This document shows positions 9,198 through 38,000 of a DNA stretch of 64,000 bases, in pieces. Position 1 is the first letter of the stretch, and the number at the start of each line of letters is the position of its first letter. Origin of the DNA: Amphiscolops sp. MND2022. Taxonomy: Eukaryota. The DNA lies in NCBI GenBank assembly GCA_964187785.1, contig OZ076409.1, forward strand, positions 76,014,001 to 76,078,000, written 5' to 3'. The translations under genes were made by a program, and so were the position numbers. The notes under the pieces are model-generated. The model searched no databases, was not told where the DNA came from, and worked only from the letters and a program-made list of their open reading frames with translations.

Positions 9198-10588
9198 GTA
9201 ATTTTGGAAAATATTTATCTTGCGTGTTTTTCGTGTTTATTTTACTATAACGTAATCGAGAGTTGCATTTTTCATGGTAGATGAGGGTATTTTATCAATT
9301 TTGCGGTAATTTGGGAGTGTTTTCTTCATGTATTTTAGTGTCATATGGTGTTGATCGTTTGTTAGGTTGTCGAAAATGCATGAAATTTAGTGTACATGTG
9401 TTATACTCATTTTCGTTGCGTTTCGGATTTGTCATAGTTTGAACATTATTGCATGAATCATTTTTCGGACTCTTGTGACTGCCGCTTGCGTGGTAGTCGA
9501 AGAGATGTTCACTCAGCAATGGTATTGGAACCCCGTAGGCGTGCAAGGTACTTGAGGTACCAATCCAAAGCTGGGTGAGTGGAGCTGCTCCGCTCCTCTC
9601 AGATGAATGAAATCTCTCAGTTTTGAGCTATATATAGTCTTCATGTTATTTTTTTACGGTCGGTTGTTTGTCATCAGACGTCGAAATGGGTTTGTCCATT
9701 TGAAATTTAATCTGATCAATCAAGGTGATTGACATCTACGGCTTTGCATGTTTCGAATTATTAAGTTTTGTGATATTGTGTGGTTTCATGTTTGCGTGTT
9801 TTCATAATGTATTCCTTTAAATGGGTTGCCCCATTATCGACATGTTGTTATATGTTCGGTGTTTCAAGTATTTTAATTTGGTGTTTTTATTTTCGTTCAT
9901 TTGGACAGGGCTTTGTCGTCACAAAGCCCCTACAAAACTAACTGAGAATCCACTAGCCGCTGGATAACCAACGCAGCAAGCTTCATCCGAATATGGTTGT
10001 GAGCTCCCCGCCTCAACTAACCAGCACTTTTTTCAGAGAAATGCCAGCCAGCACGAAGGAATGTTTTTGGCTTTTCGATAGGGGTATCTTGCTTGTTATG
10101 AACTGATGTTTACTGGGGGTGCTCACTCCTTTATTCGTTTTGTGGGTGTTTCGTCAGTTCTTATATTTTGCATGTAAGTTATTAGGCTTCAGGTATTTTC
10201 GATTGTTTGTTTCATTTTTATTCGTCTAGGTTTGGATGGTTTTGGTGTGAATTGCATATATTATCTCGTTCATTTTTAAACGGTACATGTATTTTTCCGT
10301 GTGTTGCTCATTTGTATTGCATGTAGTTTGGAATTGTCAATTTCTTTCGTGACGTCATTGATTTGGCAGGTCTTTGAACCTTACATGTATTGTTCATTTT
10401 CGTTTTTGTGAGGCATAATTCTATTTGCGTGATTCGAAATAAGGTCGGCGGTTTTTTATCGTTTCGTGGAGTTACATGTTGTTTGAGAATTAGCTGATTT
10501 ATTGTGATTTTATGTGGATGGTGTTTCTCATCACAAGGAGGTTATCGTAAGTCATTTAATATTTTCGTATTTCCATTTAGACTAAATT

Positions 10589-11312
10589 CATCGTTTTGAC
10601 ATCCTCCAGCGAAGCTAGAGTATTGTGTCAGGCTAACGATAAATTCGGTCACGATTTGATGGTAGTGTCCATCACAAATTCATCTCGTTAATTGATTTCA
10701 TGTAAATTCTGAATAATTGAATCGAGTTCATCGCTATTTCATCCTCTAGCCGAGCTAGAGTATTATGATAGCATGAACGTGAGTGCGCTCGCATTCTGAT
10801 GGCATTTTCCATCTCAAATGCATCGCTAGTAAATATAGCATGTTGATTGGTCGAAATTTTGACTAAGTTCATCACTTTTTCATCTCTCGTGTGTCTGAGA
10901 TAAATTTTCATGTGATTTCATCCTTTTTTCATCTCAAATTTTTATGTGTTGTTTTTTCTGGTTTTTTGGTCGTTTTTCATCCGTTTTACATCGTGTTTTG
11001 TTTTTATGCGTTTTTCATGTGATTTTTAGTAACTTTTCATCCATTTTACATCTTTTTTTCTTTTTAAATTGAAATTGCATGTAATTGACTCGTTTTTGCG
11101 AATTGTTCATCTTTAACACATCGTGTGTTTTGAAATGTTGTTTTACTTGGCTAACTCGTTACGTTTACTTTGTTGGTCTTTCTCAGAGAGTTTCTGGCTG
11201 ATGTAATCTCATGAATAAGGAAGTCAGGATATTTTTTCGGTGTAGGGTTCTCGCGTAACCTGTACCTACTCTGGTTGTTTCTAGACGGTCTAGAACTCAT
11301 CCTTTCCTCATC
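10589..11312 (+). repeat. Cluster of CATC-N7-CATC motifs at and downstream of the pol 3' end
   Basis: Pairs at approximately 10589, 10729, 10810, 10870, 10919, 10978, 11038, 11108 and 11298. Confidence 0.8.
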
Positions 11313-14300: not shown

Positions 14301-16197
14301 AGGCAAAAGTTCTAGAACCAAAGTTAAATGATAACAGTTGGACAGACTGCTCATCGGCCATTGGGATGCAATGGTAGGCCTGGGAACAATCAAGTTTACA
14401 GAAGTACTTTTTCCCGGCCATGTGTTGGGCAGCGTCAGCAATTGTTGTTACGGGATGGTTGTGTGCACCGTAATCGTTTTTGATCAAGTGGTTTATTCTT
14501 CTCAAGTCAACTAAAATCCTCAATTTACCATTAGGTTTACGTTGAGCAAATATCGGGGATGAGTATTTGCTATGAGGCAAAGTAGTTATGATCCCGTACT
14601 CTTGCATTAAGGCTAACTCCACGAGCAAATCGTCCTTCAAATTTGTCGGAGTAGGGAGACTTTGTGAATAAACAGGTTCTTCATGTTGGGGTGTTAGCTT
14701 AACTTTAAAATCAGTGTTCATGCCAATATCAAAACGATGTCTAGCAAAAATGGAGTTGTACTTTACCAGCAACTCCTCTACCTGTAACCGTTGAGATGGA
14801 GTAAGAAGCGAGTCGTCCCAGTTGAAGTTCTTCAGGAAGTTCATCCGTTGTTCATCGGATTGGGACGGGTCAAGCTTCTCGAGCTCTCGCAGTGCCAGAA
14901 TCTCATCATAGATTCGTCGCTCGATTGCGTTGAGTTTGTCTGGCTCACTGCACGTCTCGGGAGTTGGGTACCACTTAGTTGACTTCATTTCAGGGTTCAC
15001 GAACAGTTGGTTGATCACTGCTTCCGCCTCATCTGGGTACTTGGTGATCAGGTTCAAGTGTTCGACTGGCATGGGTGTGATGTTTGCCGCCTGATGTGGT
15101 GTCGGTATGCGAAAGTGTGCCAGAGTGCTGTTGGCATCAAGTGTGAACGTGTGGTTGTTGGGGTTGGTGACCTGGATTGTCGTCTTGCCCTCGTCTAGGT
15201 CAACCAAAGCTGGGGAAACAAGCAATTACGTCTTTCGCATGAATCCAGGTGAGCCCTCAACTGTACAGTTGTAAGTGAGATGTCCGCGTCACTGTGGACC
15301 TGTATCATCACTTGATGGAGAGGAGGGATCACTGTTCTATTACTGGAACACAAATCAATTAAACCAGTTTTGAATCTGTTGTTCTTTTGCTGTCTAAATT
15401 GCATGGACATCATGTGATTAGGGAAGTGGACAAGGTGGTTTTTTATGTCTAAGTTGACTGAGTACTTTTCGAAGAATGACATTCCAATTAAAATTGTGCC
15501 CATTGTTGGAAAGATTAGGAACGTTTCTTCAAAAACTTTTCCAGCAACGTAAAATCTAAGTAAGACTTGCTTACGCACTGGGACTAAGTTCCCGTTTGCT
15601 ATTTGAATTTTGAAATTCGGAGGGGGGAGTTCTTGAAGGATGGCTTCTGGATGAGCCGTTGTTATTTTTCGCAATTCTGCTTAAGACATTGCGCTTTGAA
15701 TTGCGCCTGTGTCTAACAGTGCATGGTTTTCGTATTTATCAAACTGAAGAGGGACGTACAGCATTTTATCTTTCTTGTTTAAATGTAAAGTGGGACTAAG
15801 AACGTGAATTTCTGTTTTAGTTGCATGTTTGTTATCTTTTGAAATGTTAATACTACTATGTTTTGCATGTTTTTTAATACTAAGCCGTTTGTCGATTGTT
15901 GAGTATGAAGTCGAGTCGTCGTCTAGATGGTTGGTGTCCATCTCTTTGGCATCGTCCACCTGCCTCATGGTGTTTTGTTGCCAGTTCATCGTTTGTTCAT
16001 CGTTGATTTCAGCGAGTGGAGAAAAGCGGCTGCCGTTGCGTTGACGTGCATTTCCCATCGCTTTTTCATCGTTGGAAAGTCTTCGCTGATAGACGTCGTC
16101 AGCTTTTGGTCGTTTGTCCAGTGAAGGCTGCCATTTCTTTTTGGACGGTTGTGTGTAGTCGGTTGAGTCGAAAGTCGTTTGTCGCGCGTTGTATTTC
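11143..16197 (-). pseudogene. pol: Pol polyprotein (protease, RT, RNase H, integrase), disrupted by a stop and several frameshifts
   Basis: Protease LLDTGA (15681-16058, premature TAA). RT with LDCSQAY, LAQGL and YVDD (13837-15225). RNase H MCDAS...TDNK...AADYLSR (12630-13880). Integrase HH-CC, then D-D-E (IDIVGP, TDKG, VER; 11795-12613). GPYKV motif near 11780. The tail ends at a TAA near 11143. Confidence 0.92.
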
Positions 16198-16220
16198 TAG
16201 CGGGCAAAATCGTGGCTGAA

Positions 16221-17648
16221 TCAAAAACCCTGGTTAATGTCTTCATCAGAGTAGCTTAGTTGTTCGTCGTCCTCAGTAATTGCTTGCATTGGATTCATCG
16301 GCTTTTGCTGTCGTTTTAAATCTTGTCGTCTAGCCTTGTTGTCGTCCTGTGAATTCGTTGTGTATGGAATCTTTCCATATGCAGAGCTGCTTTCCTTGGG
16401 AATGCGTCGTCTGCAGTCTCTTGCAGAGTGGCCGGTGTATCCACAAATCTGGCAAACCAGCTTGGGATTGTATTTCGGTTTGTCTGGGTCGGTTGCTTTC
16501 TTCATCGGAATTGCATCTTCTTTCTTAATACCGTTTGCTTCGTCACGTTGTCGGGCGCGACATTCTGTTTTGCGGTGACCTGTCTTTCCGCAGTAGAAGC
16601 ATTGTCCCTCAAATCGTTTTCGTTCTGTCGGTTGCGTTGTCGTTGTTGTTGCTGGTTTAATCGTTGTGTTGGTCGTTGGGATCGAGGAGGTGACTGCGTT
16701 AAATGGTTGAATTGCCCTAGGTGGCGCAACGTACTGTTGGTACTGGTACTTTCTCATCAAGTATGTCTTGATTTCTTCTGGTGAGCTCTCCTCCTTATTG
16801 GCCATCGTGAGTTCTTGTTGTATTTCGACTGGGAGTTTACCGAACAAGAACATTTTGATGATTTTATCCGCTTCTTCCCCAAATGCTTGTTTCGCAGTCT
16901 TTTTCAAGTTTTTGAGGAAGTCGCTGAATGTTTTTGTGGTGGGATCGTAACGGGCTTGATCCCATTTGTATCGAGCTACTTCTTTAAGGTCCTCTTTCGC
17001 GAATTCTTTCCTGAAGAGGTCGAGCACATCTTTCAGCGTTGTTAATGGCGTTATCTGGATGGATTGCCAGTACTCTTTTGCATCATCTCTCAAAAGGCTT
17101 TGAAAGAAGTGGAGTTTGTTCTCTTCGGTGATTTTGTTGGCGAGCGGGCTAAGGTGGTTGAGGAGAAGGTGCTCGAATTCCACGAATTTGTCTTTTTGGC
17201 CTCTGAAATTTGGGACGTGTGTCTGTAGTAGTTTCGTGTTGGTGGTGGTGCTTTTGATTCGTTGGGGGATCGTCTCGATTGCATTGAGTAGTCGTTCCTC
17301 ATTGCTTCTAGGAGTTGATTCACCTTCTTCGTCCGAGTCGTCTTCTTGGTATCTCCTGAAGTTTGTGAAGCTGGGTGTCGGGCGGGTGGAGCGGGTTTCT
17401 GTAACTCCTGTCACCATGTCTAACCCAACTCTGTGGGCCGGCTTTGAAGAACTTTGCGATGACGAAGGTAAGTTATTTTCGTCACTTTTACTAATAACTG
17501 CCATTAATAAGTTCTTCAGTTGACTAAACTCGCTTTGTAACTCATTTATCTTCTTTTCATAGTTCTCCCTTATTTCAGACAACTGGGACGAGATATCTGA
17601 AGCTTCGTTGTTGTCAGAGTCATTGGCGGACGACTGAGCCATGTCTGG
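16221..17648 (-). CDS. gag: Gag (start lies within the LTR/gap)
   Basis: Open frame with a coiled coil, a capsid-like region and two CX2CX4HX4C knuckles (CFYCGKTGHRKTEC, CQICGYTGHSARDC). The N-terminus MNPDQGTELRSG is readable in the 3' LTR copy at 1323. Confidence 0.9.
   Translation of the reverse strand, partial: PDMAQSSANDSDNNEASDISSQLSEIRENYEKKINELQSEFSQLKNLLMAVISKSDENNLPSSSQSSSKPAHRVGLDMVTGVTETRSTRPTPSFTNFRRYQEDDSDEEGESTPRSNEERLLNAIETIPQRIKSTTTNTKLLQTHVPNFRGQKDKFVEFEHLLLNHLSPLANKITEENKLHFFQSLLRDDAKEYWQSIQITPLTTLKDVLDLFRKEFAKEDLKEVARYKWDQARYDPTTKTFSDFLKNLKKTAKQAFGEEADKIIKMFLFGKLPVEIQQELTMANKEESSPEEIKTYLMRKYQYQQYVAPPRAIQPFNAVTSSIPTTNTTIKPATTTTTQPTERKRFEGQCFYCGKTGHRKTECRARQRDEANGIKKEDAIPMKKATDPDKPKYNPKLVCQICGYTGHSARDCRRRIPKESSSAYGKIPYTTNSQDDNKARRQDLKRQQKPMNPMQAITEDDEQLSYSDEDINQGF
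17404..17416 (-). promoter_or_regulatory. Primer binding site TGGTGACAGGAGT (probably tRNA-Leu)
   Basis: Starts with TGG immediately after the LTR CA. It is one mismatch from TGGTGTCAGGAGT, the complement of a tRNA-Leu(CAG)-type 3' end; the tRNA identity is an inference. Confidence 0.65.
17417..17648 (-). repeat. 5' LTR, partial (3' part only; the rest is lost in the N gap)
   Basis: Near-identical to 1014-1245. On the minus strand it ends ...GGGTTAGACA and is followed directly by TGG. Confidence 0.85.
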
Positions 17649-18411: not shown

Positions 18412-20512
18412 CGTCTATTGGAATAGTTTTTTGTTTGAACAAAACATTTTTCACATATTTGACTATAATTATGTTCGTATTAAGTGTTTATTGTGACTCA
18501 AAACAAGAAGCTGTTGATTTCTCTACCCTGAATCCATGACTTCATCAGGAAAATAGTGTGAACAAAGTTAGTATCTCAATTCTAAACTGTCAAACTTTAA
18601 AATTGAAGGTTTCTGGTTTGTTTTCAAGTCTTTTTGTTATAATATTTCCACTAATTTTTCAAAAAAAATGGTAGTTTTGGTTGGCAGAAAGGAGCTTAAG
18701 TTAAAAATGTCTCAGTTCTTCGGCCTTCGACAGATGCAAAGAATGGCAATTACGTCATCAAGAAATGAGAATTACGTCATGATGATCGTCATTTGACAGG
18801 CACGTGATTTGATAACGAGAACAAACACGAGCGAGTAATGGACCCGCCCGCTGCTGCACACAACCAACCGAAGCACGACAAGATGGCTGCACAATCGCTG
18901 CATATAAGGGCGATCTGCATAGATGTACTTGGATGTGCATGGATGTTGCTTCATGGATCTGCAGTCAAAAGAGACACAAAACAACAAAGTATATCATCGA
19001 TCGATATCAGTCGCCTTGAAACGATAGATACTTTGATACAAATTGGCGGCGGCGGCGGCAGTTTCCTGATGGTGGTTTTATTCAACCGAGGATCAGATTT
19101 CATTGGCCTGTTTGAAAGATGAGATACGTTCAAAATTCGTTGTTCAAAGAGACAAGAGAGTTGTCATGATGAATGATGAGATGTTTTGGTCAATGTTGTG
19201 AAACGGTGGACCACATACATTGCCAATAGTTTCTGCTTCTTTTACTCAACAACACAAATTCAAAGCCAAATATTGTTGACTAAACAACAAAGCCAAGAAC
19301 TATAGAAACCAAATAAAGGGACACATCGCCAAACCAAACGACACACCATCGACCCAAGAGACATCTTTCAAACTCAACCAGTGTTGGACAATTGCCGAGT
19401 CAGCTTTTGTACAATTTCAAACTTTTTTTCCAATTTTTCGAAAGGAAACATCTTCAATTTTTGACCGCGTGTTTTAAAAATACCAAAACAAGATTCGAAA
19501 CGACTACTTGAAAACATTTCTCTGATTCAATGATAGTGTTTCGAGCATTTCCCAGAAAAAAACTGCGCAGAACATTAGAAATGGTTAGTCCAGAAAACAA
19601 GATCGGAATTCAAAAATTGTTTTTGAAAAATCACGGAAAAAGGCAAATATATCAAAATGGGAAATTTTTGGGCCGTTTTCGCTCCAATGAGATTTCAAGA
19701 TCACGAAGTATTGGAAAACAAGTGACCCTTTTGAGAAATTCTCACAATGCCGAAAAATCAAAGGGGTAAAATCAATCAATTAAAGGTAACCAAAGGGGGA
19801 CCATTTGACCATTTGGATGCTTTCTTGATATTTTGACAGAGAATTGTAAAAAAGAACTTCCATTGGGAGTTCAGCCATCCGACAAAAAAAAGAGAAATAG
19901 TCAACGAACTTTTTTAGAAAATCAAGTTGAAAAACAAAAAAAAACGATTGTTCAACACTGCGCTGCCCATCCAAACAGCTTTGTTGATGTTTAACCAAGA
20001 AACGAAGAAGTTAAGGTTTTTATGAAAATGCAGAGACCACTGTCGACATTCGTGAAAAAAACGTGGCAAGATACTTCTAGACTGTGGGAGATTCTGAGGA
20101 TAGAAAATATCAGTATCCTGCCAGACTTGAGTCTCAACAGGGGCCGAAACAGTTTCGTGTCTCTCACCCTATCCGACATCCAGTACAACACGGGTCTAGC
20201 TCAATTAGACGACCGCTCAACTAACTGATTGATCAATTGGAAGACTATCAGCTGCTTCTAAGATATGGGGACTGTTCAATTCGTCGAACATTCAATTCGT
20301 CGAACACGTATTAATTTAGCGAGTATGGTATGACGTAATGGAATGAATTGATTTCAGCCAATCAAGTTCAAGCATTCAAAATTACGATAACGTAGTCAGC
20401 TATGTCCACATACTCCTAGTGCCCTAAATGCAATAGCGAAGCGAAGCGGAGCGACGTGCCATATGGCCATGCCTCATTATTGCTACTTGCCGAAGGAAGG
20501 GAGCGGAGCGAC

Positions 20513-22526
20513 CCAGGACTGCGGGCGTCGGGTTAAAGGTATTTGGCATACGTCGTCGAAGGGCATGCCTCGGCATGCCCACAGACGATGGGCGTTGATG
20601 TATGCTATGGGGCGTCGGTTGAAGTTTGAGCAACGGTAAGGTGCGGTTTCAGCTTCAAATATTTAAACGAAGCAAGGTTGTCTACGATTTTTAGTATTGT
20701 TACTAAGGTTCATCCAAGAAAATTGGTTCGATAAAGTGTTTTCAGAGTATTTAGACCACATTAAAAGAGATTAAAAAAAGCATTTCCGACAAATATTCAG
20801 GAAACTCATATCCTAATAACGAAAACTAGACATAGTTTTAGTGCTTGGTATACTCTTGTTGATACTCTAATTGACACTAAAGCATTACAAATGTACCCAA
20901 AAACTTCTTTGTTGCATGAGTCTTGAAGGATAGCCTTTCCAAGTTGACACAAGGCCAACTTGAAAGGCTATCATATTATAACGGTTATGTTTTTTGAGGT
21001 TTTGGTGTTCCACAAACTACTATGAAAAAATTTAAACTCTTCAAAAATGGTCCTTATTAGCCTACAATAGAGATTTATTACACAAAAGTACGTTCTGACA
21101 CATTTTAAAACCCGAAAAACATACTCAGACCCAACGTGTTGGACTTCCGGGGCAATATACCGTTACCCCCCACCATGTAATTGGACTATATTCACCTCTG
21201 GAAGAAATTGAAACACCTAACATGTACTTTATTCGGTTAAATAACAAACATTTTTAATCAAAAAACACAAAATGTTACATTTTTTTGGTCATTTCCGTGG
21301 CCAGGGGGACTTCCGGGTCATCATAACGGTTAATCCGGAATGCTCGTCACACTTCACGTCTTCCATCATATGGTGTCCAAAGTCATATTACCCCTCCTTC
21401 CTGCCCGAAATGGCCTTCAAAAACTATAAAAATCCCATTTTTCACTACATAACGGTCATTTCCGACCTAACGGGCCAACAGGGTGTGACTGAAACTAAAT
21501 CCCCCAACTCGTCTCAATGAGTACTACAATATGTTACCTAACGTTGCCACGCTGGGACCGACACTTTGGGCTCAAAAAGTGACATTTCCGGTCACATAGC
21601 GGTTAGGCTGGGGGCCAAGTCCGTAACGGTGATAGATAGCGGAAATCTGTTCGCCCCCCTGAAGGCACCATATCATGGGTATGAAACCTTGTAGTAGTGA
21701 AGGACACGATAGCTCCACGCGTTCACGAGTTAATTTCACTTCAATGCCCGTTTTACGGTTTTACCCCCAAAAAAAGGAGGCAGTCACCCCATTAGCGGCT
21801 AACGGGTCCGTTCAAAGGGTCCCAAACCACATGTTTCCAATAGGTCCTTGTCTAAACGTACTTTTGATATAAGGCACCCGACGCGCTACTACCACTCCTT
21901 CACACCGGAAATAACGGGGAAAATTGGCGGGGGCCACATTTAAAACCCACATAACGGTCATTTCCCGTCCGAGGGGTTAACCGGGGTCATTAAATTACAT
22001 GTCCCCCACTACGTCCCCAGATGCTCTACAAAACATTACCAGACGACCCCGCACTCAGACAACTCCTTCCCGGTCAAAAAGTGCAATTTCCGGTAAAATA
22101 GCGGTTTGAAACCCCCAAACTACCGTTAATATCTCCCCAAGTTTCAGTCCGATATGGACCAAAATTTGTGTACGTACGCTTCTTGACGTGCCCAACAATA
22201 AATCAGCAAGGCGTTACTGCGCTGGACCAACCAGTCCCGAGTAATTGGCTGTGAAATGCAAAATTTTCAAAAAAACGCTATTTTTTACCCCAAAAACCGT
22301 TATATTGACCCACTTTTCGATTTTTGCCGGGAAAACGTCAGTAGTAAATGTTTCTTAGAATTGTTATAGGAAGCCGTGTGCCAAATTTCAGCCGAATCGT
22401 ACGGCTAGTTTTCGAGATCGCATTTTTTTGACCCGGTCGCGGATAGGCTATTTTTGGTATCTAAGGCTCGCGACAGGACCCGTCTCCCGCGCTCGCAAAT
22501 AAAGGTGGGGAGAAAACCCCGACCAC
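20513..22526. repeat. Array unit 1, divergent family-A variant (2014 bp)
   Basis: Shares the GGGCATGCC core, the GATAGCC stem-loop and internal TAACGG/TTCCGG subrepeats with the ~1.97-kb units, but has a different right end. Confidence 0.8.
20561..20580. promoter_or_regulatory. GGGCATGCCTCGGCATGCCC palindrome matching a p53-family response element (first of 21 copies)
   Basis: Two adjacent RRRCWWGYYY decamers with zero spacer (19/20 match). Present near the start of 21 of the 24 units; function is inferred only. Confidence 0.45.
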
Positions 22527-23796
22527 CTAGCGGAAATTGGGGGCGCCCTGTGGCGCTATTTGGCATACGTCGTCGAAGGGCATGCCTCGGCATGCCCACG
22601 GACGGTGGGCGTTGATGCGAGTATGTGGCTTTGACGTTAGTGATGTTTGAGTAGTAGTAAGCTAAAGAAGTGGTTTTGCTTCTGGAGACATGGTGCAAAG
22701 GAAAACTTTTACCAAACACAGCTATCCGTGTGCAATATTGAGAAAGGTCAAATAAAAACCAATATGGGCCATAGTATCAGGTCTTTGGCGAGTACATTCT
22801 CATCTCCCCCACAAGGGGGGAGATGGAATGTACTCAACTGTTTCGTGATATCGGACGAATAAGACGGTAAGGAAAATTTTCAAAATGGGTCCAAAGACAT
22901 TAAAAGGCTTTGTTCTACTATGCAACGGTGATTGAACAGCTATGGGGATGATTGAACGTATTCCGATGAGTTTTTGATTAGACATGACTTACAAAATCTC
23001 ATTTTTGACATTAAAATCCTATAAGATGCTCACACTCAAAATGTCATAAGTCAACGTCAGATTAAGCTACAGAGTCGTTCTATAGCTCATTTTTCTCGTC
23101 TATTCAAGTACTTTCCACATGCATTCACTTGCAATACTAGTTGTGTGGAAGTTTCCTGACTTTGGGACGCCAGAAGGTAATTTTTACAATTTTTGCGTTT
23201 TTTTGAAATTTTTCTAAGTCCCACAACTTTTTGCCAGGAAGTGCTAGAACGCTGAAACCTCGTATTTAGGGCCAAATGGGTTTGCTCGGCAGAAATTTGG
23301 GCAGGGGTTGCCTCCTGTAAAGGCTCTGGGAAAAATTTTGGGCGAAAATGGCAGAGATAAACTGGTATTTGCAACAAATGCACCAAAATTTTCGTTTATT
23401 TCTCAGTCAATTTTCATCTGATTCACCTCAAAATTCGTCCACGCACTCCTCCGACAATGCGGAGCAATATTGTTGTTATTGTGCGAATCGCTCCGGGCAC
23501 TCTGGAAAAAGTTATGAGCCCTCAAAGTCAAAAAGTTGCGTTTTTTATGTCCATTGGCAACTTTTGTTGCATTTTTGACCAACTTTTTGAAAAAATTCGG
23601 AAAAACGCCAGTAGGAAATAGTTCTTAGGATTTGATTCTAGGCCTGTATGCAAAGTTTCAGGAAAATCTAAGGGGTGGTTTTCGAGATCGTCATTTTTTG
23701 AGCGTGTTTAGGGTAGGTAGTAAAACCGGATAACAGCCACTTGGGGCCCCTCCCCCAATTGGACAGAAAAATGCAGGAAAAAAAGTTCCCGGCCAC
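22527..23796. repeat. Array unit, family B (1270 bp)
   Basis: Diverged homologue at 46848-48126 (shared CATCTCCCCC stem-loop and AAATGTCATAAGTCAACGTCA block). Confidence 0.8.
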
Positions 23797-25186
23797 CTAG
23801 CAAATGTGGGCGCCCTGTAGCGCTATTTGGCATACGTCGTCGAAGGGCATGCCTCGGCATGCCCACAGACGGTGGGAGTTGGTAGGAGTGTGTGATGTCT
23901 AATACTACCCTGATTTGTGTACTTCAGCTTGAAATGGTATTCGTCCGGGTGACACCTCTGGACAGGATTCAGATCACTCAGTTGAACAAATGTCTTTCTT
24001 TTGACAAATTGACTTGAAGGAAAAATATCAAGAGAAAGGAGGAAACAAAATTCCACTATTTTTCGTTTTCAGAACAGATAGCCTTCAAGATTGACCAAAG
24101 GTCAACTTGAAAGGCTATCGGGGGTGATAATGGTGATCACTTTTCCGATCTTCAGCAAAACATGCAACGATGTTAGCTTTTTGCGTGGAAAAAAGCATTC
24201 AAATCAAAAAATAATAATAACTTGACCTTAAAAAGCATTGAAAACTGCATTTACGCTACTTTTTGGACCATTTCCGGTCAAAATTGACCTCTTCCGGTCA
24301 CAGGGGGTTACTTCCGGTATCTGGCAGTGTCAGTTACGACTACGCAGTGAATATATATTTTATGCTCTCACTGGTTCAACTGACTTACGCAACTTGAATG
24401 TGGACCAAACACAAGGAAAATTGATAAAAATACTACCAAAAGGGGGTTTTAAGCCCATTTCCGGTCATAGCGAAACCCATGACTGGACAACACGTGGTCA
24501 TTAAGTTGACCCCAGGTTATACTTCACTTTTGATTTCCTGCTAGTTGCTCGTACAATGCCTCCTTACCAGTGAAAATGGAGACTTCCGGTCTGAAAGTGC
24601 ACAAAAACGCTCATTTCCGGTCAAGGGGGTAATGGGGGTGAACTCAACGCATGTCATCGGATCTATCTCAAAATGCCTAACAAATCGTCAGCAGGGTGTG
24701 CACGCGCTAAATCTACGGCTTTATTACGGAAATTAGCAATCTCCCAAATTTAGGGGTCAAAAATACACGGATGCACCCCTCTATCTCTGTGGGGGGGTAA
24801 TCCGAGGGCAACCAAATTTTCTCAGCATACGTAATGGAAGATGCTGCAACTTTTCGTGCTCCACACTTGATACGCTAGGAACAAAGTATCTATGAGTTTT
24901 TTGCTTGAAAAGTTGAAAATGACAAAAAAAACGCAACAATGCGACAAAAATTGCGCAAAAAGTGCAACAAAGACAAGTTTTTCAGCAACCGTCACTCCTA
25001 CACTTTTTCATTACTCATTGATTAGGGGCCACATGCAAAATTTCAGAGAATTCTAACGGTTAGTTTTTGAGATCTCGATTAAATCGGACACTTCTGGTAT
25101 GTGGTAAATTTCGGTACAGGCTCGGCACGGGGCCCTCCCCAAAGCCTCGCAAACGTCATATACGAGCAAAAAAAATACCCGACCAC
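23797..25186. repeat. Array unit, family C (1390 bp)
   Basis: Near-identical copy of the same length at 49161-50550. Confidence 0.9.
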
Positions 25187-26244
25187 CCAGTGGAGGCAGG
25201 TACCAACTACCAGTAAGGCCTATTCAGACAATACTTGATTGAAACTGAAGTTGGTGCAACTTAAAATTGTAAACTTTAATCGTTTTCTTTTCACAACAAA
25301 CCACCTCAAAAAAAGTTATTTTTTCATCTTGATAATTCTACCAAGCACCTCATTGGAAGCACATAAGTTGCACAGACTTTTATCGTTTGTCGCCAATCTT
25401 CCTCCGAAACGCTTCGCGTTCTCCCGGAACATCGGCGATCTTTCTACATGTCATTTAACAAAAAACATAGAATTCCAACAACTGAGAAAAGATTGCAGTA
25501 ATTTGGGATTAAAACTTTAAAAGTGTAATCATTAACCAAAAATAAAAATTAAATGTGTCAAATTCCCCTAAAAAGTCAGCGTAAGTGCTCGGGTACCTCA
25601 TTTTTGACCTCAAAATGTGACAAAACATCAAAAAAGACGAAAAATCCTTTTTTTCGGAAAAATTCTAAATTTTTCGAATTTTTGTAGAACTTTTGTAGAA
25701 CTTTTTTTTGGCCAAATAAACCAAAATTTTTTCCTCTTTGGATTAAACATAAAACCATTCATTTTTATCCATAGGCACTACCTATTCCATTGGGCACTTC
25801 GGAAGTCATGATAAAAAGTGTCAAAAAATCACCTTTTTTGGTGTATATTTTCTATCATATCTCCCGTTGTATTAGGACCTGGCCAAAAATTTTTGGCCAT
25901 CTTGTAGCCTACTTCATTTGTACCTCACACAAAAAGTTTCGGCCTATTGGCTCCAATGGCTGAGGAGCAGCGACTGAAAAGATGCGAAAAATGGGTGATT
26001 TCGACATACATTTGCTCATAACTTCCGTCACAGGGTATGGAGCGAAAAGTGCCAGCAGGAAAAAGTTCTTACATTTTGATTCTATGTCCGCATGCAAAGT
26101 TTGAATAAATTCTAACGGTTCATTTTCGAGATCGTCTCCGTAGACCCCCCCCAACATGTATATTTTTAGCAGGCTATTCTTCAAGCTCGTCACGGGACCC
26201 TACCCGGCCTCGCACTACTCTATGATGGTAAAACACCCGACCAC
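25187..26244. repeat. Array unit, family D (1058 bp)
   Basis: Starts CCAGTGGAGGCA and lacks the GGGCATGCC core. Diverged homologue at 48127-49160. Confidence 0.75.
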
Positions 26245-29034
26245 CTAGCCGCTACCGCTTTAGTGACCTCGCAGGGGCGTGATTTGGCATACGTCGTCGA
26301 AAGGCATGCCTCGGCATGCCTACGGACGGTGGGCGTTGATGTTGGCATGTGGGCGTCGGCTTGAATTACATTATGCGACGGTAAGGAGCGGTTTCACCTT
26401 TGATAAAAAGCATTACAGTTGGTGAAATTTTCAAGCCACTATGAACAGGCATCAGCCAACAATATTTGTTGGAAAATTCGTTTTCCTAAAATGTAGAGCA
26501 CCAACGAAAGAATATAAAAAAATATGTTGTCAAACTTTGTTATCCTATTAAAAGAATCATGTTGAATTTCATCCAACAACGTTAGGAGACATGGTTTTCC
26601 TGATATTCAGTCCACAAATTAAAGGTTGAAAGTTTTTTGTCAAACATTTGTTTCTTACTTATCCTTTTAAAAGAATCATATGAAATTTTTTAACTATGGT
26701 TAAACTTTTGTTGAAGTTCAAATTGGCTATGGATAATAACAAAAACACTCAATCACACTGTCGCTGCGCAGTTGTGAAAGGATAGCCCTTTCAAGTTGAC
26801 ACAAGGTCAACTTGAGGGCTATCATATTGTAACGGTTATTGAGTTAATGGAGTCGAAACTTCAAGCTGATAAAGTGAAAATGTTCAAAGTCTTCAAAAAG
26901 AAACAACAGAGACAATATCGTAGCTATGATCCGCAATTACACGTCGATTGGCACTTCCAAACCAATTTATTATCTTTACTTCCCAACGGGTTGGATTTCC
27001 GTGGCATTTTCCTATTTCTCACCTCATGTTTCCTGTCAAATTCTTTTCTTGAAGCTTTCTGACACCCTGAATGCACTTTGGTTTGATGAAATTACATGTT
27101 TATTCCAACAAAACACAGAAAAGACAAACTTTCTGAAATTTCTCGTGCCACAGCAACTTCAGGGGCATTATAAAGGTCAAGTTCGTACGGTCATCTCACA
27201 ACACCACAATCATCATAAAGTGACCAAAGACCTAATACAGCTACTTCTTGGCTTGAAGGACCTATCGAAAGCAAAAAAAATGTGAAAAAAATTTTTCACT
27301 ACATAACGGTCATTTTCGCTGTTAGTGTGACTTCCGAATCATAATAACGGTTATTTCAGATTGCTTGTTTCACACCAAAACTTTCATTGTATACTGTCCA
27401 AAGACATATTACCGATACTTCCTGCCCTAAATGGCCTTCAAAAAGTATAAAAATTACATTTTTCACTACATAACGGTCGTTTCCGGTCTAACGGGTCAAC
27501 GGGGGGTGACTGAAACTATATCCCCCAACTCGTCTCATTGAGTTCTACATAAAGTTACCTGACGTTCCCACGCTGGGACCAACCCTTTTGGCTCAAAAAA
27601 TGACATTTCCGGTCACATAGCGGTTAGGCTGGGGGGCCAAGTCCGTAACGGTGATATATAGCGGTAATCTGTTTTCCCCCCTGAAGGCACCGTATCATGG
27701 GTATGAAACCTTGTAGTAGTGATGGACACGATTGCTCCACGCGTTCACGAGATATTTACCCCTCAATGCCCGTTTTCCGGTTTTAGCAGTAAAAAAAGGA
27801 GGCGATCACCCTTATAACGGCTAACGGGTTGGGCCAGAGGGTCCCAAACAACATGTTCCCGGTTGGTCCTTGTCTTAACCTACTTTTGATATATGACACC
27901 CGACGCGCTACCCTCACTCCTTCACATCGGAAATAACGGAGAAAGTTGAAGGGGGTCAATTTTAAAACTCACATAACGGTAATTTCCCGTCCGAGGGGTA
28001 AACCGGGGTCGGCAAACTACATGTCCCCCAACACGTCTCTAGATGCTCTACAAAACATTACTTAACGACTCCACTCTCAGACGACTCCTTCCTGGTCAAA
28101 AAGGGCAATTTCCGGTAATATAGCGGTTAGGCTGGGGGGCAAAGTCCGTAACGGTGATAGATAGCGCTGATCTGTTTGCCCCCCTGAAGGCACCATGTCA
28201 TGGGTATGAAACCTTGTAGGAGTGATGGACACGATTGCTCCACGCGTTCACGAGATAATTACACTTTAATGCCCGTTTTACGGTTTTACCACCAAAAAAA
28301 GGAGGCGGTCACCCTATTTCCGGCTAACGGGTCCGTTCAAAGGGTCCCAAACCACATGTTTCTGATAGGTCCTTGTTTAAAGCTACTTTTGATATATAGC
28401 ACTCGACACGCTATTCCGACTCCTTCACACCGGAAATTGCGGGGAAAATTGGAGGGGGCATTTTTGAAACTCACATAACGGTCATTTCCCGTCCGAGGGG
28501 TAAACTGGGGTCGGCAAACTACATGTCCCCCACCACGTCTCCAGATGCTCTACAAAACATTACCAAATGACTCCGCGCTCAGACGACTCCTTCCCGGTCA
28601 AAAAGTGCAATTTCCGGTAAAATAGCGGTTTGGGCGGGGGGCCAAGTCCGTAACGGTGCAAGATAGAAAATTTTTGTTTGGCCCCCCGTACCCACTGCAT
28701 GATGCCCAACAAACCTTTACTAGTGACCGGACCTGCTAAAACGACGGGGGGAAAAGTTATTCACACTTTTATAAATTTTACCCCCTGATTGACCCCTAAC
28801 GGTCGCTCGTGTACCCGTCACAACGAAACCACGGGTATGGAACCTGGTGGGGGGCGACCAGTGCCCAAAATCTGGGTGGGGGCCAAAAAATCATAAACTT
28901 CTGACGGGTGGAATCCGAAATCGGTCTCAAAACATCGAAAAATTTTCATACTACAAGAGTCTTTCAGTACTGAATGTTCGGTAGGGAACCCTACCCTACC
29001 TCACTATATTCTATTGGGGACAGCCCCCCGCCAC
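26245..29034. repeat. Array unit, long family-A variant (2790 bp) with an extra ~500-bp internal subrepeat
   Basis: ATTTCCGGT...AGCGGTT...AAGTCCGTAACGGTG recurs at ~27605, ~28109 and ~28610. Confidence 0.8.
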
Positions 29035-32000
29035 CTAGCCCGGGATGTACGGGCGTCGTTTGATAAGGATTTGTCATACGTCGTCGAAGGGCATGCCTCG
29101 GCATGCCCACAGACGGTGTGCGTTGATGTAAAGTGTGTGGCGTTGACGTTAATTAAACTAAAATATGACGTTTCAGCTTCCATAATGAAATGTAATATTC
29201 AATTTGAACTTTTATAAATCTGTTACAAACATTCCAAAGAATACCATTTGTTAGGTAAATAGGTTTCCTGGCATTTAGGACACATTTTGTATGGAAAAAA
29301 CCATTTTTTTCAACAATTTGCTCACTATGATTCTAATAACGGAATCATGACGGCATAGTTTTTGTCGTTGATACACTGTTGATGAAGCTCTAATTGGTAC
29401 TAATGCAATATATACCTACCCAAAAACACTCTTGATTAACGATTTCAGAAGGATAGCGCTTCCAAGTTGACACCAGGCCAACTTGAAAGGCTATCATAAG
29501 GTAACGGTTATGTTGGTTGAGGTTTCGGAGTCTCTGAAACTATATGGAAAAACTTTAATTTTTAAAAATAGTCCACAAGAGTCGAAAAAATTACGCCGAA
29601 AGACATTTTAAAACCAAAAAACCTATCCTGTCTCCAACGGTTTGACTTCCGGTGCTATATACCGTTACCCCCCACAAGGTTTCATGACTATGTTCACTAC
29701 TGTAGACCGTCGAAACACCTAACAGATACTTTTATCTACAAAATACAAAACATTTGTACCCAATAGACACAAAATTTGACCATTTCCGGTCGTTTACGGT
29801 ACCAGGGGGTCTTTAGGGTCAACATAACGGTTATTTCCGAATGCTCGCCTCACGTCCTCCCTTACCTCATATAGTGTCCAAGCACCTATTACCACTCCTT
29901 CCGCACCTAAATACACTTGAAAAAGTATAAAAATTGCAATTTTACCCACATAACGGTCATTTCCGGTCCCAAGGGGTAACGGGGGTGACTGAAACTATAT
30001 CCCTCAACTCGTCTCATTGAGTACTACAATAAGTTACCTAACGTTCCCCGGCTGGGACCGACCCTTTGGGCTCAAAAAGTGACATTTCCGGTCACATAGC
30101 GGTTAGGCTGGGGGGCCAAGTCGGTAACGGTGATAGATAGCGGAAATCTGTTTGCCCCCCTGAAGGCACCATATCATGGGTATGAAACCTTGTAGTAGTG
30201 ATGGACACGATTGCTCCACGCGTTCACGAGATATTTACCCCCCAATGCCCATTTTACGGTTTTAGCACTAAAAAAAGGAGGCGGAAGCCCCATTTCCCGC
30301 TAACGGGTTGGTCCATGGGGTCCCAAACTACATGTTTCCGATAGGTCCTTGTCTAAACCTACTTTTGTTATATAACACCCGACGCGCTACTCCCACTCCT
30401 TCACACCGGAAATAGCGGTAAAACGTGGAGGGGGGCATTTTTCACGCTCATATAACGGTCATTTCCCGTCCGGGGGGTAAATTGAGGTTGGCAAACTACT
30501 TGTCCCCCACTTCGTCTCAAGGCCGTCCCCAATACATCACCTAACGACCCCGCGCTCAGACGACTCCTTCCGGGTCAAAAACCTGCGTTTCCGGAAAAAT
30601 AACGGTTTGAGCGGGGGGGTACTTGGAGATAGCTTCAAGATAGAAAAATTTGGTTTGGACCTTCGGGGCCCCTGCAACACGGTCAAGAAACTTTTAGCAG
30701 GGTTCCAAAGTTTTAAATCAACAGAAAAAAAGTTATGTGGCCCAATATGAATTTTACCCCTAAAATGACCCCCTAACGGTCGCCCGTGTGGCCAGAAAAA
30801 AATTTTCCGGGGTATGGAACCCGGTGGGGGGCGCTAATTTTCGGAAAATCTGGTGGGGGCCGCTCCAACTTTAAAATCCTATGGTTAGATCACGAGATCC
30901 CGAAATTTTTGCAAGATTTCCTATCGATAGCTATTAGAGTTAAAATCGGATTCAGGACCCTACCCGAATCCTCCAATATATTTGTTGGGGTTACCCCCCC
31001 GCACCTAGCCCGGGATGTACGGGCGTCGTTAGGTATGTATTTGGTATACGTCGTCGAAGGGCATGCCTCGGCATGCCCACAGACGGTGGGCGTTGATGTA
31101 AAGTGTGTGGCGTTGACGTTAATTAAACTAAAATATGACGTTTCAGCTTCCATAATGAAATGTAATATTCCATTTGAACTTTTATAAATCTGTTACATAC
31201 ATTCCAATTAATACCATTTGTTAGGTAAATAGGTTTCCTGGCATTTAGGACACATTTTGTATGGAAAAAACCATTTTTTTCAACAATTTGCTCACTATGA
31301 TTCTAATAACGGAATCATGACGGCATAGTTTTTGTCGTTGATACACTGTTGATGAAGCTCTAATTGGTACTAATGCAATATATACCTACCCAAAAACACT
31401 CTTGATTAACGATTTCAGAAGGATAGCGCTTCCAAGTTGACACCAGGCCAACTTGAAAGGCTATCAAAATGTAACGGTTATGTTGGTTGAGGTTTCGGAG
31501 TCTCTGAAACTATATGGAAAAACTTTAATTTTTAATAATAGTCCATAATAGTCGACAAAGGTACGCCGAAAGACATTTTCAAACCAAAAACCTATCCTGT
31601 GTCCAACGGTTTGGACTTCCGGTGCTATATACCCCGTTACCCCCCACAAGGTTTCATGACTATGTTCACTACTGCAGACCGTCGAAACACCTAATAGATA
31701 CTTTTATCTACAAAATACCCAACATTTGTACACAATAGACACAAAATTTGACCATTTCCGGTCGTTTACGGTACCAGGGGGACTTTAGGGTCAACATAAC
31801 GGTTATTTCCGAATGCTCGCCTCACGTCCTTCCTTACATCATACAGTGTCCAAGCACCTATTACCACTCCTTCCGCATCTAAATGCCCTTGAAATAGGAC
31901 AAAAATGGCAATTTTTTTCACATAACCGTCATTTCCGGTCGTAAGGGGTAACGGGGGGTGACTGAAACTATGTCCCCCAACTCGTCTCAATGAGTACTAC

Positions 32001-35000
32001 AATAAGTTACCTAACGTTCCCTGGCTGGGACCGACCCTTTGGGCTCAAAATATGACATTTCCGGTCACTTAATGGTTAGCCTGGGGGGCCAAGTCCGTAA
32101 CGGTGATAGATAGCGGAAATCTGTTTGCCCCCCTGAAGGCACCATATCATGGGTATGAAACCTTGTAGTAGTGATGGACACGATTGCTCCACGCGTTCAC
32201 GAGATATTTACCCCCCAATGCCCATTTTACGGTTTTAGCACTAAAAAAAGGAGGCGGAAGCCCCATTTCCCGCTAACGGGTTGGTCCATGGGGTCCCAAA
32301 CTACATGTTTCCGATAGGTCCTTGTCTAAACCTACTTTTGTTATATAACACCCGACGCGCTACTCCCACTCCTTCACACCGGAAATAGCGGTAAAACGTG
32401 GAGGGGGGCATTTTTCACGCTCATATAACGGTCATTTCCCGTCCGGGGGGTAAATTGAGGTTGGCAAACTACTTGTCCCCCACTTCGTCTCAAGGCCGTC
32501 CCCAATACATCACCTAACGACCCCGCGCTCAGACGACTCCTTCCGGGTCAAAAACCTGCGTTTCCGGAAAAATAACGGTTTGAGCGGGGGGGTACTTGGA
32601 GATAGCTTCAAGCTAGAAAAATTTGGTTTGGACCTCCGGAGCCCTTGCAACACGGTCAAGAAACTTTTAGCAGGGTCCCAACGTTTTAAATCAACAGAAA
32701 AAAAGTTATGTGGCCCAATATGAATTTTACCCCTAAAATGACCCCCTAACGGTCGCCCGTGTGGCCAGAAAAAAATTTTCCGGGGTATGGAACCCGGTGG
32801 GGGGCGCTAATTTTCGGAAAATCTGGTGGGGGCCGCTCCAACTTTAAAATCCTATGGTTAGATCACGAGATCCCGAAATTTTTGCAAGATTTCCTATCGA
32901 TAGCTATTAGAGTTAAAATCGGATTCAGGACCCTACCCGAATCCTCCAATATATTTGTTGGGGTTACCCCCCCGCACCTAGCTGCTAACGCGCTCGGGGG
33001 TGTTGTGTGGGTGGAATTTGGTATACGTCGTCGAAAGGCATGCCTCGGCATGCCTACGGACGGTGGGCGTTGATGTAAAGTATGTGGCGTTGACGTTAAT
33101 TAAACTATAATTTGACGTTTCAGCTTCCATAACGAGACCTATTAAAATGTTGATCTTCTTTTTCATTGTTATTTAGTTTTAGTCAATACCATTTATTATT
33201 TTATTCAATTTGGTGGAATCAGGACACATTTTACATTGAAAAAATCAACTTTGTAAACAATTTGTTAACTAATATTCTTATAACGGAATTATCACGACAT
33301 CGTTTTTGCCGTTGGCAAACTGTTGATGAAGCTCTAATTGGTACTAATGCAACATATACCTACCCGAAAACACTCTTGATTAACGATTTTAGAAGGATAG
33401 CCCTTCCAAGTTGACACCAGGCCAACTTGAAAGGCTATCAAAATGTAACGGTTATGTTGACTGAAGCATTGGAGGTCCCTGAAACTAATGTGAAAAAATT
33501 TTATTTCCGAAAAAAGTCCGTATTAGTTGATATTATGACGATTCAACCCACAAAACTACGCCTAAAGACATTTTGAAACCAAAAAACCTATTCTGTAACC
33601 AACGGTTTGGACTTCCAGTGCTATATACCGTTACCCCCCACAAGGTTTCATGACTATGTTCACTTCTGAAGGCCTTTAAAACACCTTCCAGGTACTTTTA
33701 TCCATAAAATACCAAACATTTGTACCCTATAAACACAAAATTTGGCCATTTCCGTTCGTTAACGGTACCAGGAGGACTTTGGGGTCAACGTAACGGTTAC
33801 TTCCGAATGCTCTCCTCTCGACCTCCATTACATCATATGGTGTCCAAGCACCTATTACCACTCCTTCCGCACCTAAATACACTTGAAAAAGTATAAAAAT
33901 TGCAATTTTACCCACATAACGGTCATTTCCGGTCCCAAGGGGTAACGGGGGGTGACTGAAACTATATCCCCCAACTCGTCTCAATTAGCACTACAATAAG
34001 TTACCTAACGTTCCCCGGCTGGGACCGACCCTTTGGGCTCAAAAAGTGACATTTCCGGTCACATAGCGGTTAGGCTGGGGGGCCAAGTCGGTAACGGTGA
34101 TAGATAGCGGAAATCTGTTTGCCCCCCTGAAGGCACCATATCATGGGTATGAAACCTTGTAGTTGTGATGGACACGATTGCTCCACGCGTTCACGAGATA
34201 TTTACCCCTCAATGCCCATTTTACGGTTTTAGCAGTAAAAAAAGGAGGCGGAAGCCCCATTTCCCGCTAACGGGTTGGTCCAGGGGGTCCCAAACTACAT
34301 GTTTCCGATAGGTCCTTGTCTAAACCTACTTTTGTTATATAACACCCGACGCGCTACTCCCACTCCTTCACACCGGAAATAGCGGTAAAACGTGGAGGGG
34401 GGCATTTTTCCCGCTCATATAACGGTCATTTCCCGTCCGGGGGGTAAACTGGGGTCGGCAAACTATATATCCCCCGCTTCGTCTCAAGGCCGTCCCCAAT
34501 ACATCACCTAACGACCCCGCGCTCAGACGACTCCTTCCGGGTCAAAAACCTGCGTTTCCGGAAAAATAACGGTTTGGGCGGGGGGGTACTTGGAGATAGC
34601 TTCAAGATAGAAAAATTTGGTTTGGACCTCCGGAGCCACTGCAACAAGGTCAAGAAACTTTTAGCAGGGTCCCAAAGTTTTAAACCAACAGGAAAAAAGT
34701 TATGCGACCGTATATAAATTTTACCCCCAAAATGACCCCTAACGGTCGCCCGTGTACCCCGACAAAATATTTCAATCACGCTGGAACCCGGTGGGGGGCG
34801 AATAACTTTGGAAAATCTGGTGGGGGCCGCTCCAACTTTAAAATCCTACGGTTAGATCACGGGATCGGCAAAATTTTCTAAAATCCCTAACGATAGCTGG
34901 CAGCACTGAACTCGGATTCAGGACCCTACCCGAATCCTCCAATATCTTTGTTGGGGTTACCCCCCCGCACCTAGCTGCTACCGCGGGTGGGTGTAGATAT

Positions 35001-38000
35001 GGAGGGTGTTTGGTATACGTCGTCGAAGGGCATGCCTCGGCATGCCCACAGACGGTGGGCGTTGATGTTAAGTATGTGGCGTTGACGTTAATTAAACTAT
35101 AATATCACGTTTCAGCTTACAAAATGAAACGTAATATTCAATTTGAACTTTTATTACCTGTTATATACAATTCAATCAATATCATTAGTTTGGTAAAAAG
35201 GTTTTCTGGCATAAAGGACACATTTGAAATGTACAAAATCAACTTTATCAACATTTTGTTAACTATTGCTCTAATAACGGAATCATCACGACATAGTTTT
35301 TGTCGTTGGCAAATTTTTCTTGAAGCTCTAATTGATTCTAAAATGATTCAAACATACCCAAAAACACACTTGATCAACGATTTTTGAAGGATAGCCCTTC
35401 CAAGTTGACACCAGGCCAACTTGAAAGGCTATCATAAGGTAACGGTTATGTTGTTTGAGGTTTGGGAGTCTCTGAAACTATATGGAAAAACTTTAATTTT
35501 AAAAAATATTCCATATTAGTTGACAAAAGTACGCCGAAAGACATTTTAAAACGAAAAAACCTATCCCGTCTCTAACGGTTTGGACTTCCGGTGCTATATA
35601 CCGTTACCCCCCGACAAGGTTTCATGACTATGTTCACTACTGCAGACCGTCGAAACACCTAATTGATACTTTTATTTACAAAATACCAAACATTTGTACC
35701 CAATAGACACAAAATTTGACCATTTCCGGTCGTTTACGGTACCAGGGGCACTTTAGGGTCAACATAACGGTTATGTCCGAATGTTCGCCTCACGTCCTCC
35801 CTTCCATCATATAGTGTCCAAGCAACTATTACCACTCCTTCCGCACCTAATTGCCCTTCAAAAAGTACAAAAATCCCAATTTTACCCACATAACGGTCAT
35901 TTCCGGTCCCAAGGGGTAACGGGGGTGACTGAAACTATGTCCCCCAACTCGTCTCAATGAGTACTACAATAAGTTATCTAACGTTCCCTGGCTGGGACCG
36001 ACCCTTTGGGCTCAAAAAATGACATTTCCGGTCACATAGCGGTTAGGCTGGGGGGCCAAGTCCGTAACGGTGATAGATAGCGGAAATCTGTTTGCCCCCC
36101 TGAAGGCACCATATCATGGGTATGAAACCTTGTAGTAGTGAAGGACACCGTAGCTCCACGCGTTCACGAGATATTTATCCCTCAATGCCCATTTTCCGTT
36201 TTTAACCGTAAAAAAAGGAGGCGGAAGCCCCATTTCCCGCTAACGGGTTGGGTCAGGGGGTCCCAAACCACATGTTTCCGATAGGTCCTTGTCTGAACCT
36301 ACTTTTGATATATGGCACCCGACGAGCTACTCCCACTCCTTCACACCGGAAATAGCGGTAAAACGTGGAGGGGGGCATTTTTCCCGCTGATATAACGGTC
36401 ATTTCCCGTCCGGGGGGTAAACTGAGGTTGGTAAACTACATGTCCCCCACTTTGTCTCAAGGCCGTCCCCAAAACATCACCTAACGACCCCGCGCTCAGA
36501 CGACTCCTTCCGGGTCAAAAACCTGCGTTTCCGGAAAAATAACGGTTTGAGCGGGGGGGTACTTGGAGATAGCTTCAAGATAGAAAAATTTGGTTTGCAC
36601 CTCCGGAGCCCTTGCAACATGGTCGAAAAACCTTTAGCAGGGTTCCCAAACTTTTAAACCAACAGGAAAAAAGTTTTATGGACAAATATGAATTTTACCC
36701 CTAAAATGACCCCCTAACAGTCGCCCGTGTGGCCAAAAAAAAATTTTCCGGGGTATGGAGCCCGGTGGGGGGCGATTTATTCGGGAAAATCTGGTGGGGG
36801 CCGCTCCAACTTTCAAATCCTACGGTTAGTTCCCGAGATCCCGGTTTTTGAGGGAAATTTTCTACTGATAGCTGACGGTACTAAGATCGGATTCAGGACC
36901 CTACCCGAATCCTCCAATATCTTTGTTGGGGTTACCCCCCCGCACCTAGCCGCTACCGCAATTGGGTGTAGATATATTGGATTTTGGTATACGTCGTCGA
37001 AGGGCATGCCTCGGCATGCCCACAGACGGTGGGCGTTGATGTAAAGTATGTGGCGTTGACGTTAATTAAGTTAAAACGTGAGGTTTCAGCTTCTATAATG
37101 AAACGAAATAATAATGTTTAACTTTTTTTAACTGTTATTTTGGTCAATCAGTACCATTTATAACGTAAATCGTTTTCCTGGCATTTAGGAAACATTTTAA
37201 ATGCAAAAAATCAACTTTGTCAACAAGTTGTTAACTATTCTTCTACTAACGGAATCATCACGACATGGTTTTTGTCGTTGGCAAACTAATGATTAAGCTC
37301 TAATTGATACTAAAGTGATAAAAACCTACTCAAAAACACACTTGATATACGATTTGTGAAGGATAGCCCTTCCAAGTTGACACCAGGCCAACTTGAAAGG
37401 CTATCATAATGTAAAGGTTATGTTGATTGAAGCTTTGGAGGTCCCTGAAACTATTGGAAAAACCTTTAATGTCAAAAAATATCGAAAATAGTCAATATTA
37501 GAACAATTCAACCCACAAATGTACGTTCATAAGCATTTTAAAACCCAAAAACCTATACTGTGTCCAACGGCTTGGACTTCCGGTGTTATATACCGTTACC
37601 CCCCTCAAGGTTTCATGACTATGTTCATTTCTGGATGCCTTTGAAACACCTTCCATGTACTTTATTCCATAAAATACCAAACATTTGTACCCTAAAAATA
37701 CAAAATTTGACCATTTCCGGTCGTTTACGGTACCAGGGGGACTTTAGGGTCAACATAACGGTTATGTCCGAATGCTCGCCTCACGTCCTCCCTTACCTCA
37801 TATAGTGTCCAAGCACCTGTTACCACTCCTTCCGCGTCTAAATGCCCTTCAAATAGGACAAAAATGGCAAATTTACTCACATAACGGTCATTTCCGGTCC
37901 CAAGGGGTAACGGGGGGTGACTGAAACTATGTCCCCCAACTCGTCTCATTGAGTACTACAATAAGTTACTTAACGTTCCCCGGGTGGGACCGACCCTTTG

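Follow-up and report, generated by a model that had tools for sequence, protein, structure and literature searches.

The array and its surroundings

The window, by which we mean the whole stretch of 64,000 nucleotides that was analysed, is occupied from position 20513 to its end (~43 kb) by one polar head-to-tail array of 24 units of 1.0-2.8 kb each, which was found by self-comparison and motif search (Table 1). The units fall into the families A (16 units), the A-like U1, F, B with its relative U15, C (two units) and D (two units, 66% identical), and the 15 complete A units share 87-99% mutual identity. Ends and bodies are reassorted between the families: U2 has its left end in common with U3 and its body in common with U15 (70% over 875 bp). 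All 23 complete units are full length, with no truncated unit and no tail among them. A palindromic block of 45-63 bp (GATAGC...CAAGTTGAC...GTCAACTTG...GCTATC) is common to the otherwise different families A, F and C, and an internal hairpin of family B (22784-22838) is kept in a metagenome contig described below (L001, 555-605; 81% over 54 bp).

Table 1. Positions of the array, its units and the sequence features discussed in the text; a slash marks the junction between two units.
Feature	Position	Strand	Remarks
Left flank	20478-20512	+	Repeat end: TT, degenerate GCC-GAA-GG hairpin, ending GCGAC; fold not significant
Array	20513-64000		24 non-coding units in a single orientation; 23 complete, last cut by window end
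U1, diverged A-like	20513-22526	-	74-76% identity to A; CCAG start on +
U2, family B	22527-23796	-	1270 bp; left end common with C, 90% over 93 bp
U3, family C	23797-25186	-	1390 bp; 99% identity to U17
U4, family D	25187-26244	-	1058 bp; without conserved left block
U5, family F	26245-29034	-	2790 bp; A-related body with extra internal repeat of ~500 bp
U6-U14, nine A units	29035-46847	-	1970-1993 bp; mosaic subtypes
U15	46848-48126	-	1279 bp; B-related body, unrelated left end
U16, D-related	48127-49160	-	1034 bp; CCAG start on +
U17, family C	49161-50550	-
U18-U24, seven A units	50551-64000	-	U24 cut by window end
Reported junction CAC/CCAG, C unit to D unit	25184-25190	+	Exchange point inside CACC, 25184-25187
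Partner junction CAC/CTAG, C unit to A unit	50548-50554	+
Conserved left block (example)	23824-23884	+	8-bp hairpin at 23845-23864
Right-end region (example)	25004-25186	+	~190 nt, loosely conserved; in 23/23 complete units and L001
Palindromic block (examples)	26778-26839, 20926-20988, 24077-24119		Also in every A unit

No unit encodes a recognisable protein. None of the window ORFs tested (sets of 31, 37 and 6) matches a Rep, helicase or recombinase family, and no RepHel was found among the window ORFs scanned; a Pfam search with 31 ORFs from the array and its vicinity yielded two sub-threshold matches, which were taken as chance. Rfam gave no match at the gathering threshold and three at chance level, and no tRNA was detected. 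The motif CUGANGA is characteristic of hammerhead ribozymes, and a hammerhead reading was dropped because no CUGANGA was seen by eye.

Outside the array, the window holds a Ty3/Gypsy LTR retrotransposon (11795-17648, minus strand, with 1014-1245) with gag and zinc knuckle, RT, RNase H and integrase in several ORFs, an element that marks the host as a eukaryote. Its 232-bp piece at 17417-17648, beside a gap of 200 N, is 99% identical to 1014-1245 and may stem from a second copy or from an assembly artefact. Interrupted ORFs at 6012-8388 (plus strand) have no Pfam match, and their N-terminal part resembles zinc fingers of the FAM200/ZBED5/SPIN-DOC type (language-model scores 0.91-0.94); judging from these predictions they are probably a decayed hAT-like transposase, and no link between them and the array was seen. 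The ORFs at 6-8 kb are flanked (1950-2900 and 8700-11150) by many degenerate GATGA/TCATC-rich repeats in opposite orientations, with a 60-bp tandem at 2282-2427 inside them, and these are possibly the subterminal repeats of one large element. The stretch 665-1020 (plus strand), which to the eye resembles a Tc1/mariner transposase relic, has no Pfam match at E 0.01.

Junctions and breakpoint

All 23 internal junctions read CACCYAG on the plus strand (CTAG in 21, CCAG in two), and this motif occurs 30 times on the two strands of the window vs 10.5 +/- 3.3 times in shuffled sequences, with none of 100 shuffles reaching 30. The initial annotation had described the junction between a C and a D unit together with its partner between a C and an A unit, and when the sequence was re-read its coordinates and letters, the C ends and the D starts were all found to be correct: both C units terminate in ATACCCGACCAC, followed by CCAG at 25187 and by CTAG at 50551, and the D units, of which the overall identity is so low, begin with the same 12 nt, CCAGTGGAGGCA. 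It had also assigned the Y to the downstream unit and placed the exchange within CACC, and both points are borne out. The base preceding CAC is G after 15/15 A units and C after 8/8 non-A units, irrespective of the next unit, a rule that closes the left side; only U1, U4 and U16 have C as their Y, irrespective of the preceding unit, and Y tracks the downstream unit in 5/5 informative junctions. With the letter in front of CAC set by the unit upstream and Y by the unit downstream, the exchange can be placed inside CACC (GGTG on the minus strand). At its left edge the array has GCGAC/CCAG, with GACC and not CACC, and, if this is a true insertion flank, it may narrow the shared part to ACC.

The almost identical C units have different neighbours on both sides, with letters in common for no more than 4 nt upstream and 1 nt downstream, and several pairings of families that have unrelated bodies share one base-precise junction. 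The junction of a mixed cassette array is real and precisely mapped. Read on the minus strand, the window units end in CTAG or CTGG in 24/24 cases, as was claimed at first; this CTRG varies only at the R position, and given such an end the units start with GTG in 23/23 cases, in agreement with the original caveat that the ends are non-canonical. A CTRR-compatible core is expected by chance in ~6% of random cores (post hoc simulation with equal base frequencies).

CACC stands on both sides of 22 of the 23 complete units, the exception being the left side of U1, and in an array such a repeat is indistinguishable from a single junction. One reading of this pattern is that the units are Crypton-like elements moved by a tyrosine recombinase, with CACC or CACCYAG as terminal direct repeat and crossover, and that circles excise and re-integrate at att-like resident junctions. 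This reading is unlikely, and it is the main rival of the one preferred below. Recombinase-driven integration typically yields polar mixed arrays at one site, a pattern that the present array would fit, and every unit can be written as CACC...CACC. Cryptons are without TIRs and have 4-6-bp terminal direct repeats that are thought to be recombination substrates, as stated in excerpts of PMC3212892. However, there are no inverted arms round the CACC core (best means 4.2/12 over 13 junctions vs ~3.3 expected), the left edge has GACC in place of CACC, a recombinase ORF was not found in the window, and the behaviour of Y, which goes with the downstream unit in all five informative cases, speaks weakly for one cut point rather than a heteroduplex core. 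An 8-bp core placed wholly in the downstream unit has an arm score of 5.3/12, which was set aside because such a core excludes the breakpoint and the score reflects G/C-rich ends.

GAC/C at the left flank is a candidate for the founder target site. At 20434-20512, GGAGCGAC occurs twice (20448 and 20505) beside the degenerate hairpin, and the array may sit ~35 bp deep in another repeat; an inverted partner matching the left-flank repeat was not found within the window. One contig of the sequencing run X1 runs along this repeat and has GACC-GAG in place of the GACC-CAG of the window, with 12/13 letters matching the flank before divergence, after a 4-nt offset. Going by its letters, the contig may represent an empty site with a likeness to the junction, a hint that consists of one 30-letter loose end in one contig of another sample, placed at 80% likeness; it might equally be explained by flank homology running through AG.

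Outside the window, a scan of metagenome contigs gave one match, L001, in which a right-end region, CAC/CTCG and the conserved left block follow each other in this order, with a body that is 71% like family B over 334 bp. L001 carries the same layout, so the architecture exists elsewhere, and its related junction suggests that the group extends beyond this assembly. The minus-strand end of L001 is CGAG and not CTRR, which means that CTRR is not universal. Two array motifs that were searched in viral contigs gave no matches. A search of sequencing runs found one run (share 0.10), with no RNA run among those found; the run contigs cover the stretch patchily, and one 84-bp contig spans the junction at 26245 with 12 other letters and 4 gaps.

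End regions and relations between units

The conserved left block (~60 nt) is present in 21/24 units and in L001, is 94% conserved in 15 rows and begins 29-39 nt into the unit. Its 8-bp hairpin lies 45-55 nt from CYAG behind a hypervariable spacer (~30 nt), in which A varies more than anywhere else (pi 0.30, first 50 columns). The hairpin, which is absent from 3/24 units, is paired together with a 5-bp outer stem in 195/195 cells of the 15 rows, and a G:C pair is changed to A:T in 3 rows, probably by one event. Complete pairing with one compensatory pair is what would be expected for single-strand recognition, and a T-G pair in 14/15 rows favours folding on the plus strand, not the minus strand. 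At the other end of the units, a profile of the last 190 nt, built from 11 of the 23 complete units, matches all 23, ending at the junction, and has no strong match in 1-20500; it also found L001, which had not been used to build it (E 1e-20). The initial annotation had pointed to short GC hairpins near the unit ends, and both types do exist, but they are not general: one or the other occurs in 12/24 units, as weak folds. The A-type hairpin abuts CTAG with zero spacer, and of 21 distinct 45-nt ends just three reach z <= -2 when folded as minus strand.

A further option is insertion at a preferred site, either by a DDE transposon with a 3-4-bp duplication (ACC or CACC), by an IS607-type serine recombinase on CC/GG, or by a target-specific retroelement. 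The shared ACC or CACC could be the duplicated target, one possible cut yields a 5' TG on the minus strand, and a plus-strand fold with G-T pairs would suit RNA. Yet the terminal inverted repeats of DDE transposons were not found in the array units (five cut points in each of nine units, at most 7/15 matches), a 7-mer is common to both ends in at most one of nine units, the 23 complete units are without truncation or tail, and there is no Rfam family or tRNA match. We regard this as the least likely of the readings considered here.

How the units came to stand side by side can be approached through their similarity. Adjacent A units are not closer to each other than random pairs (0.100 for 13 pairs vs 0.091 for 105 pairs, p 0.92), and since neighbours resemble each other no more than non-neighbours do, plain rolling-circle amplification was rejected. 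Among 16 close A pairs only one dimer looks co-duplicated, U6-U7 with U18-U19 (distances 0.016 and 0.038). Of 28 cut points at which linkage of similarity patterns was computed on alignment columns, the junction has the lowest value (rho 0.13, p 0.20), although internal cut points also drop to rho 0.21-0.31, and the two ends of the same unit are linked (first vs last 300 columns, rho 0.55, p 0.001). When 14 units were matched over five window sizes, own-end rho was 0.35-0.50 and neighbour rho 0.02-0.13, with separate jackknife ranges; a bootstrap of 1000 resamples, 14-20% of which gave a difference <= 0, does not reach significance, so that the contrast between own and neighbour linkage is suggestive only. 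It is thereby suggested that units are exchanged whole at the junction. The A units are internally mosaic and sit in two runs (p 3e-4), and therefore family-biased targeting or local recombination must also act; uniform self-targeting leaves the two A runs unexplained.

Mosaic A units clustered in runs would also suit a complex satellite, in which an old cluster of ordinary mobile elements with relic junctions has been enlarged and shuffled through unequal exchange and gene conversion and site-specific insertion no longer takes place, and the possible dimer duplication and the non-significant bootstrap contrast point the same way. We consider such a satellite quite improbable: it leaves the base-precise mixing of unrelated families unexplained, it sits badly with the different neighbours of the C pair, and random crossovers predict that windows across a junction are more linked than ends 1.4 kb apart, the opposite of what was seen.

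Mechanism and comparison with known systems

The explanation that we prefer is that the units are non-autonomous DNA transposons without TIRs that target their own end-to-end junction, a self-targeting cassette architecture to which we give a probability of about 0.7. That the units are moved by a Helitron-related HUH enzyme, which integrates circles at its own end-to-end junction, is a narrower proposal that we hold at slightly short of even odds, and in it we infer the enzyme, the strand and the circle. Counted for it were the uniform junctions (23/23), the polarity of the units, the breakpoint confined to CACC, the CTRG ends, the paired hairpin, the swapping of ends, the distances between adjacent A units, the linkage pattern and the possible empty site; counted against it were the lack of a transposase match among the tested ORFs, the CGAG of L001, the absence of the TC start and of the target site of Helitrons, the variable 30 nt beside CTAG, the units without the conserved hairpin, the plus-strand fold, the bootstrap result and the A runs. 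A HUH transposase encoded elsewhere would peel off the minus strand, from 5' GTG or nearby to CTRG 3', and the peeled strand would be closed to a circle of which the joint recreates CTRG/GTG. If the target rule is roughly GGT in a CTNGGT context, it would be satisfied by a circle-type joint, and so the circle could integrate at an existing junction, a step that is modelled by analogy on the relaxase TrwC integrating DNA into its own oriT. As every insertion would leave two junctions, the array would grow as a mixed cassette chain, in which A copies would turn mosaic afterwards by gene conversion or unequal exchange. That the array works like a rolling-circle element is the best single guess, and that it is a Helitron is not supported; the units probably work like a rolling-circle or recombinase element targeting itself, and they are outside any defined Helitron group.

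The defining features of Helitrons, HLE1 and HLE2 are taken here from excerpts of PMC4067079, PMC3627910, PMC11417382 and PMC5148889. HLE1 Helitrons, as far as the passages of PMC4778049 (Helraiser) and PMC11417382 describe them, resemble the array in having no TIRs, a CTRR-like end on one strand, polar joints like a circle junction, end swapping and many non-autonomous families. The Helitron-like reading of the initial annotation stands for the CTRR-compatible ends, which 24/24 window units have on the minus strand and from which L001 departs, but not for the other HLE1 features. None of five possible cuts in GGTG gives a 5' TC; in place of insertion between A and T, a G follows CTRG in 24/24 cases, including the left edge; and in place of a 16-20-nt palindrome ~11 nt from the 3' end, a 14-nt hairpin lies at 9-12 nt in B and C only (3/24), the conserved 20-nt hairpin of the array units standing 45-55 nt off. 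The present array also differs in being mixed-family and base-precise. Helraiser circles carry precise CTAG-TC joints (passages of PMC4778049), a precedent for the proposed circle step, and maize Helitrons, according to the sections of PMC3288121 used, go into or close to other Helitrons, with no fixed junction given.

HLE2 elements (Helitron2, Helentron and HINE-DINE-1; parts of PMC3627910, PMC4067079 and PMC5148889) share with several units hairpins at both ends, and the left-flank hairpin is like their 5' hairpins, as judged by eye against excerpts of PMC5148889. The same partial sources describe a tolerance of non-canonical termini (FoHeli3-5 start with TGCCT) and report tandem and self-insertions. 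A search for the asymmetric or subterminal inverted repeat of HLE2 found none at the expected places: it gave complementarity between a unit's own ends at p < 0.05 in 2/17 tests (U2 and U20), and an 11/12 inverted match was found in U1 only (1/24 tests), 152 nt from the end. HLE2 targets are TT or T-rich, whereas the junctions and the left edge are G/C-rich.

Cryptons (excerpts of PMC3212892) are alike in lacking TIRs and in a 4-bp core readable as a terminal direct repeat, and the array differs from them in that it has no recombinase found in the window, no inverted arms and no full core at its left edge. Replitrons, in the portions of PMC10288648 used, are HUH elements whose insertion is oriented and whose ends carry short direct repeats, and the CACC repeat of the array is as ambiguous for them as it is for Cryptons; they were described in plants, algae and protists, and Replitron-1 has fuzzy ends and variable duplications where the joints here are exact. 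TrwC offers the example of a HUH enzyme for which a copy of its own nick site serves as the place of integration; TrwC is a bacterial conjugation protein and not a transposase, the passages of PMC6049929 speak of no arrays, and they report that integration failed in human cells. Helitron-associated arrays in Paramecium, Meloidogyne, Xenopus and maize are, in excerpts of PMC13085455, PMC13404089, PMC12001565 and PMC3288121, telomere-targeted, satellite-embedded, minisatellite-based or loosely nested. A mixed and base-precise array was not found in the parts of the literature searched, and Repbase or supplementary family tables may hold these ends.

The usual account of tandem Helitron arrays is loose nesting or the amplification of one copy by rolling circle, and a mixed, base-precise chain to which whole units seem to have been added singly is a different route to kilobase satellites. 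We tentatively suggest, and rather doubt more than believe, that the array stands for an undescribed group of eukaryotic DNA transposons of HUH or tyrosine-recombinase lineage, which home to their own junction by an exact target rule of about CTNGGT and form integron-like chains of mixed families. The choice of the family that inserts beside a given unit could then be biased by the hypervariable terminal 30 nt. If this is true, the order of insertions could be read from the chain, which would also point to a sequence-specific, scarless eukaryotic integrase.
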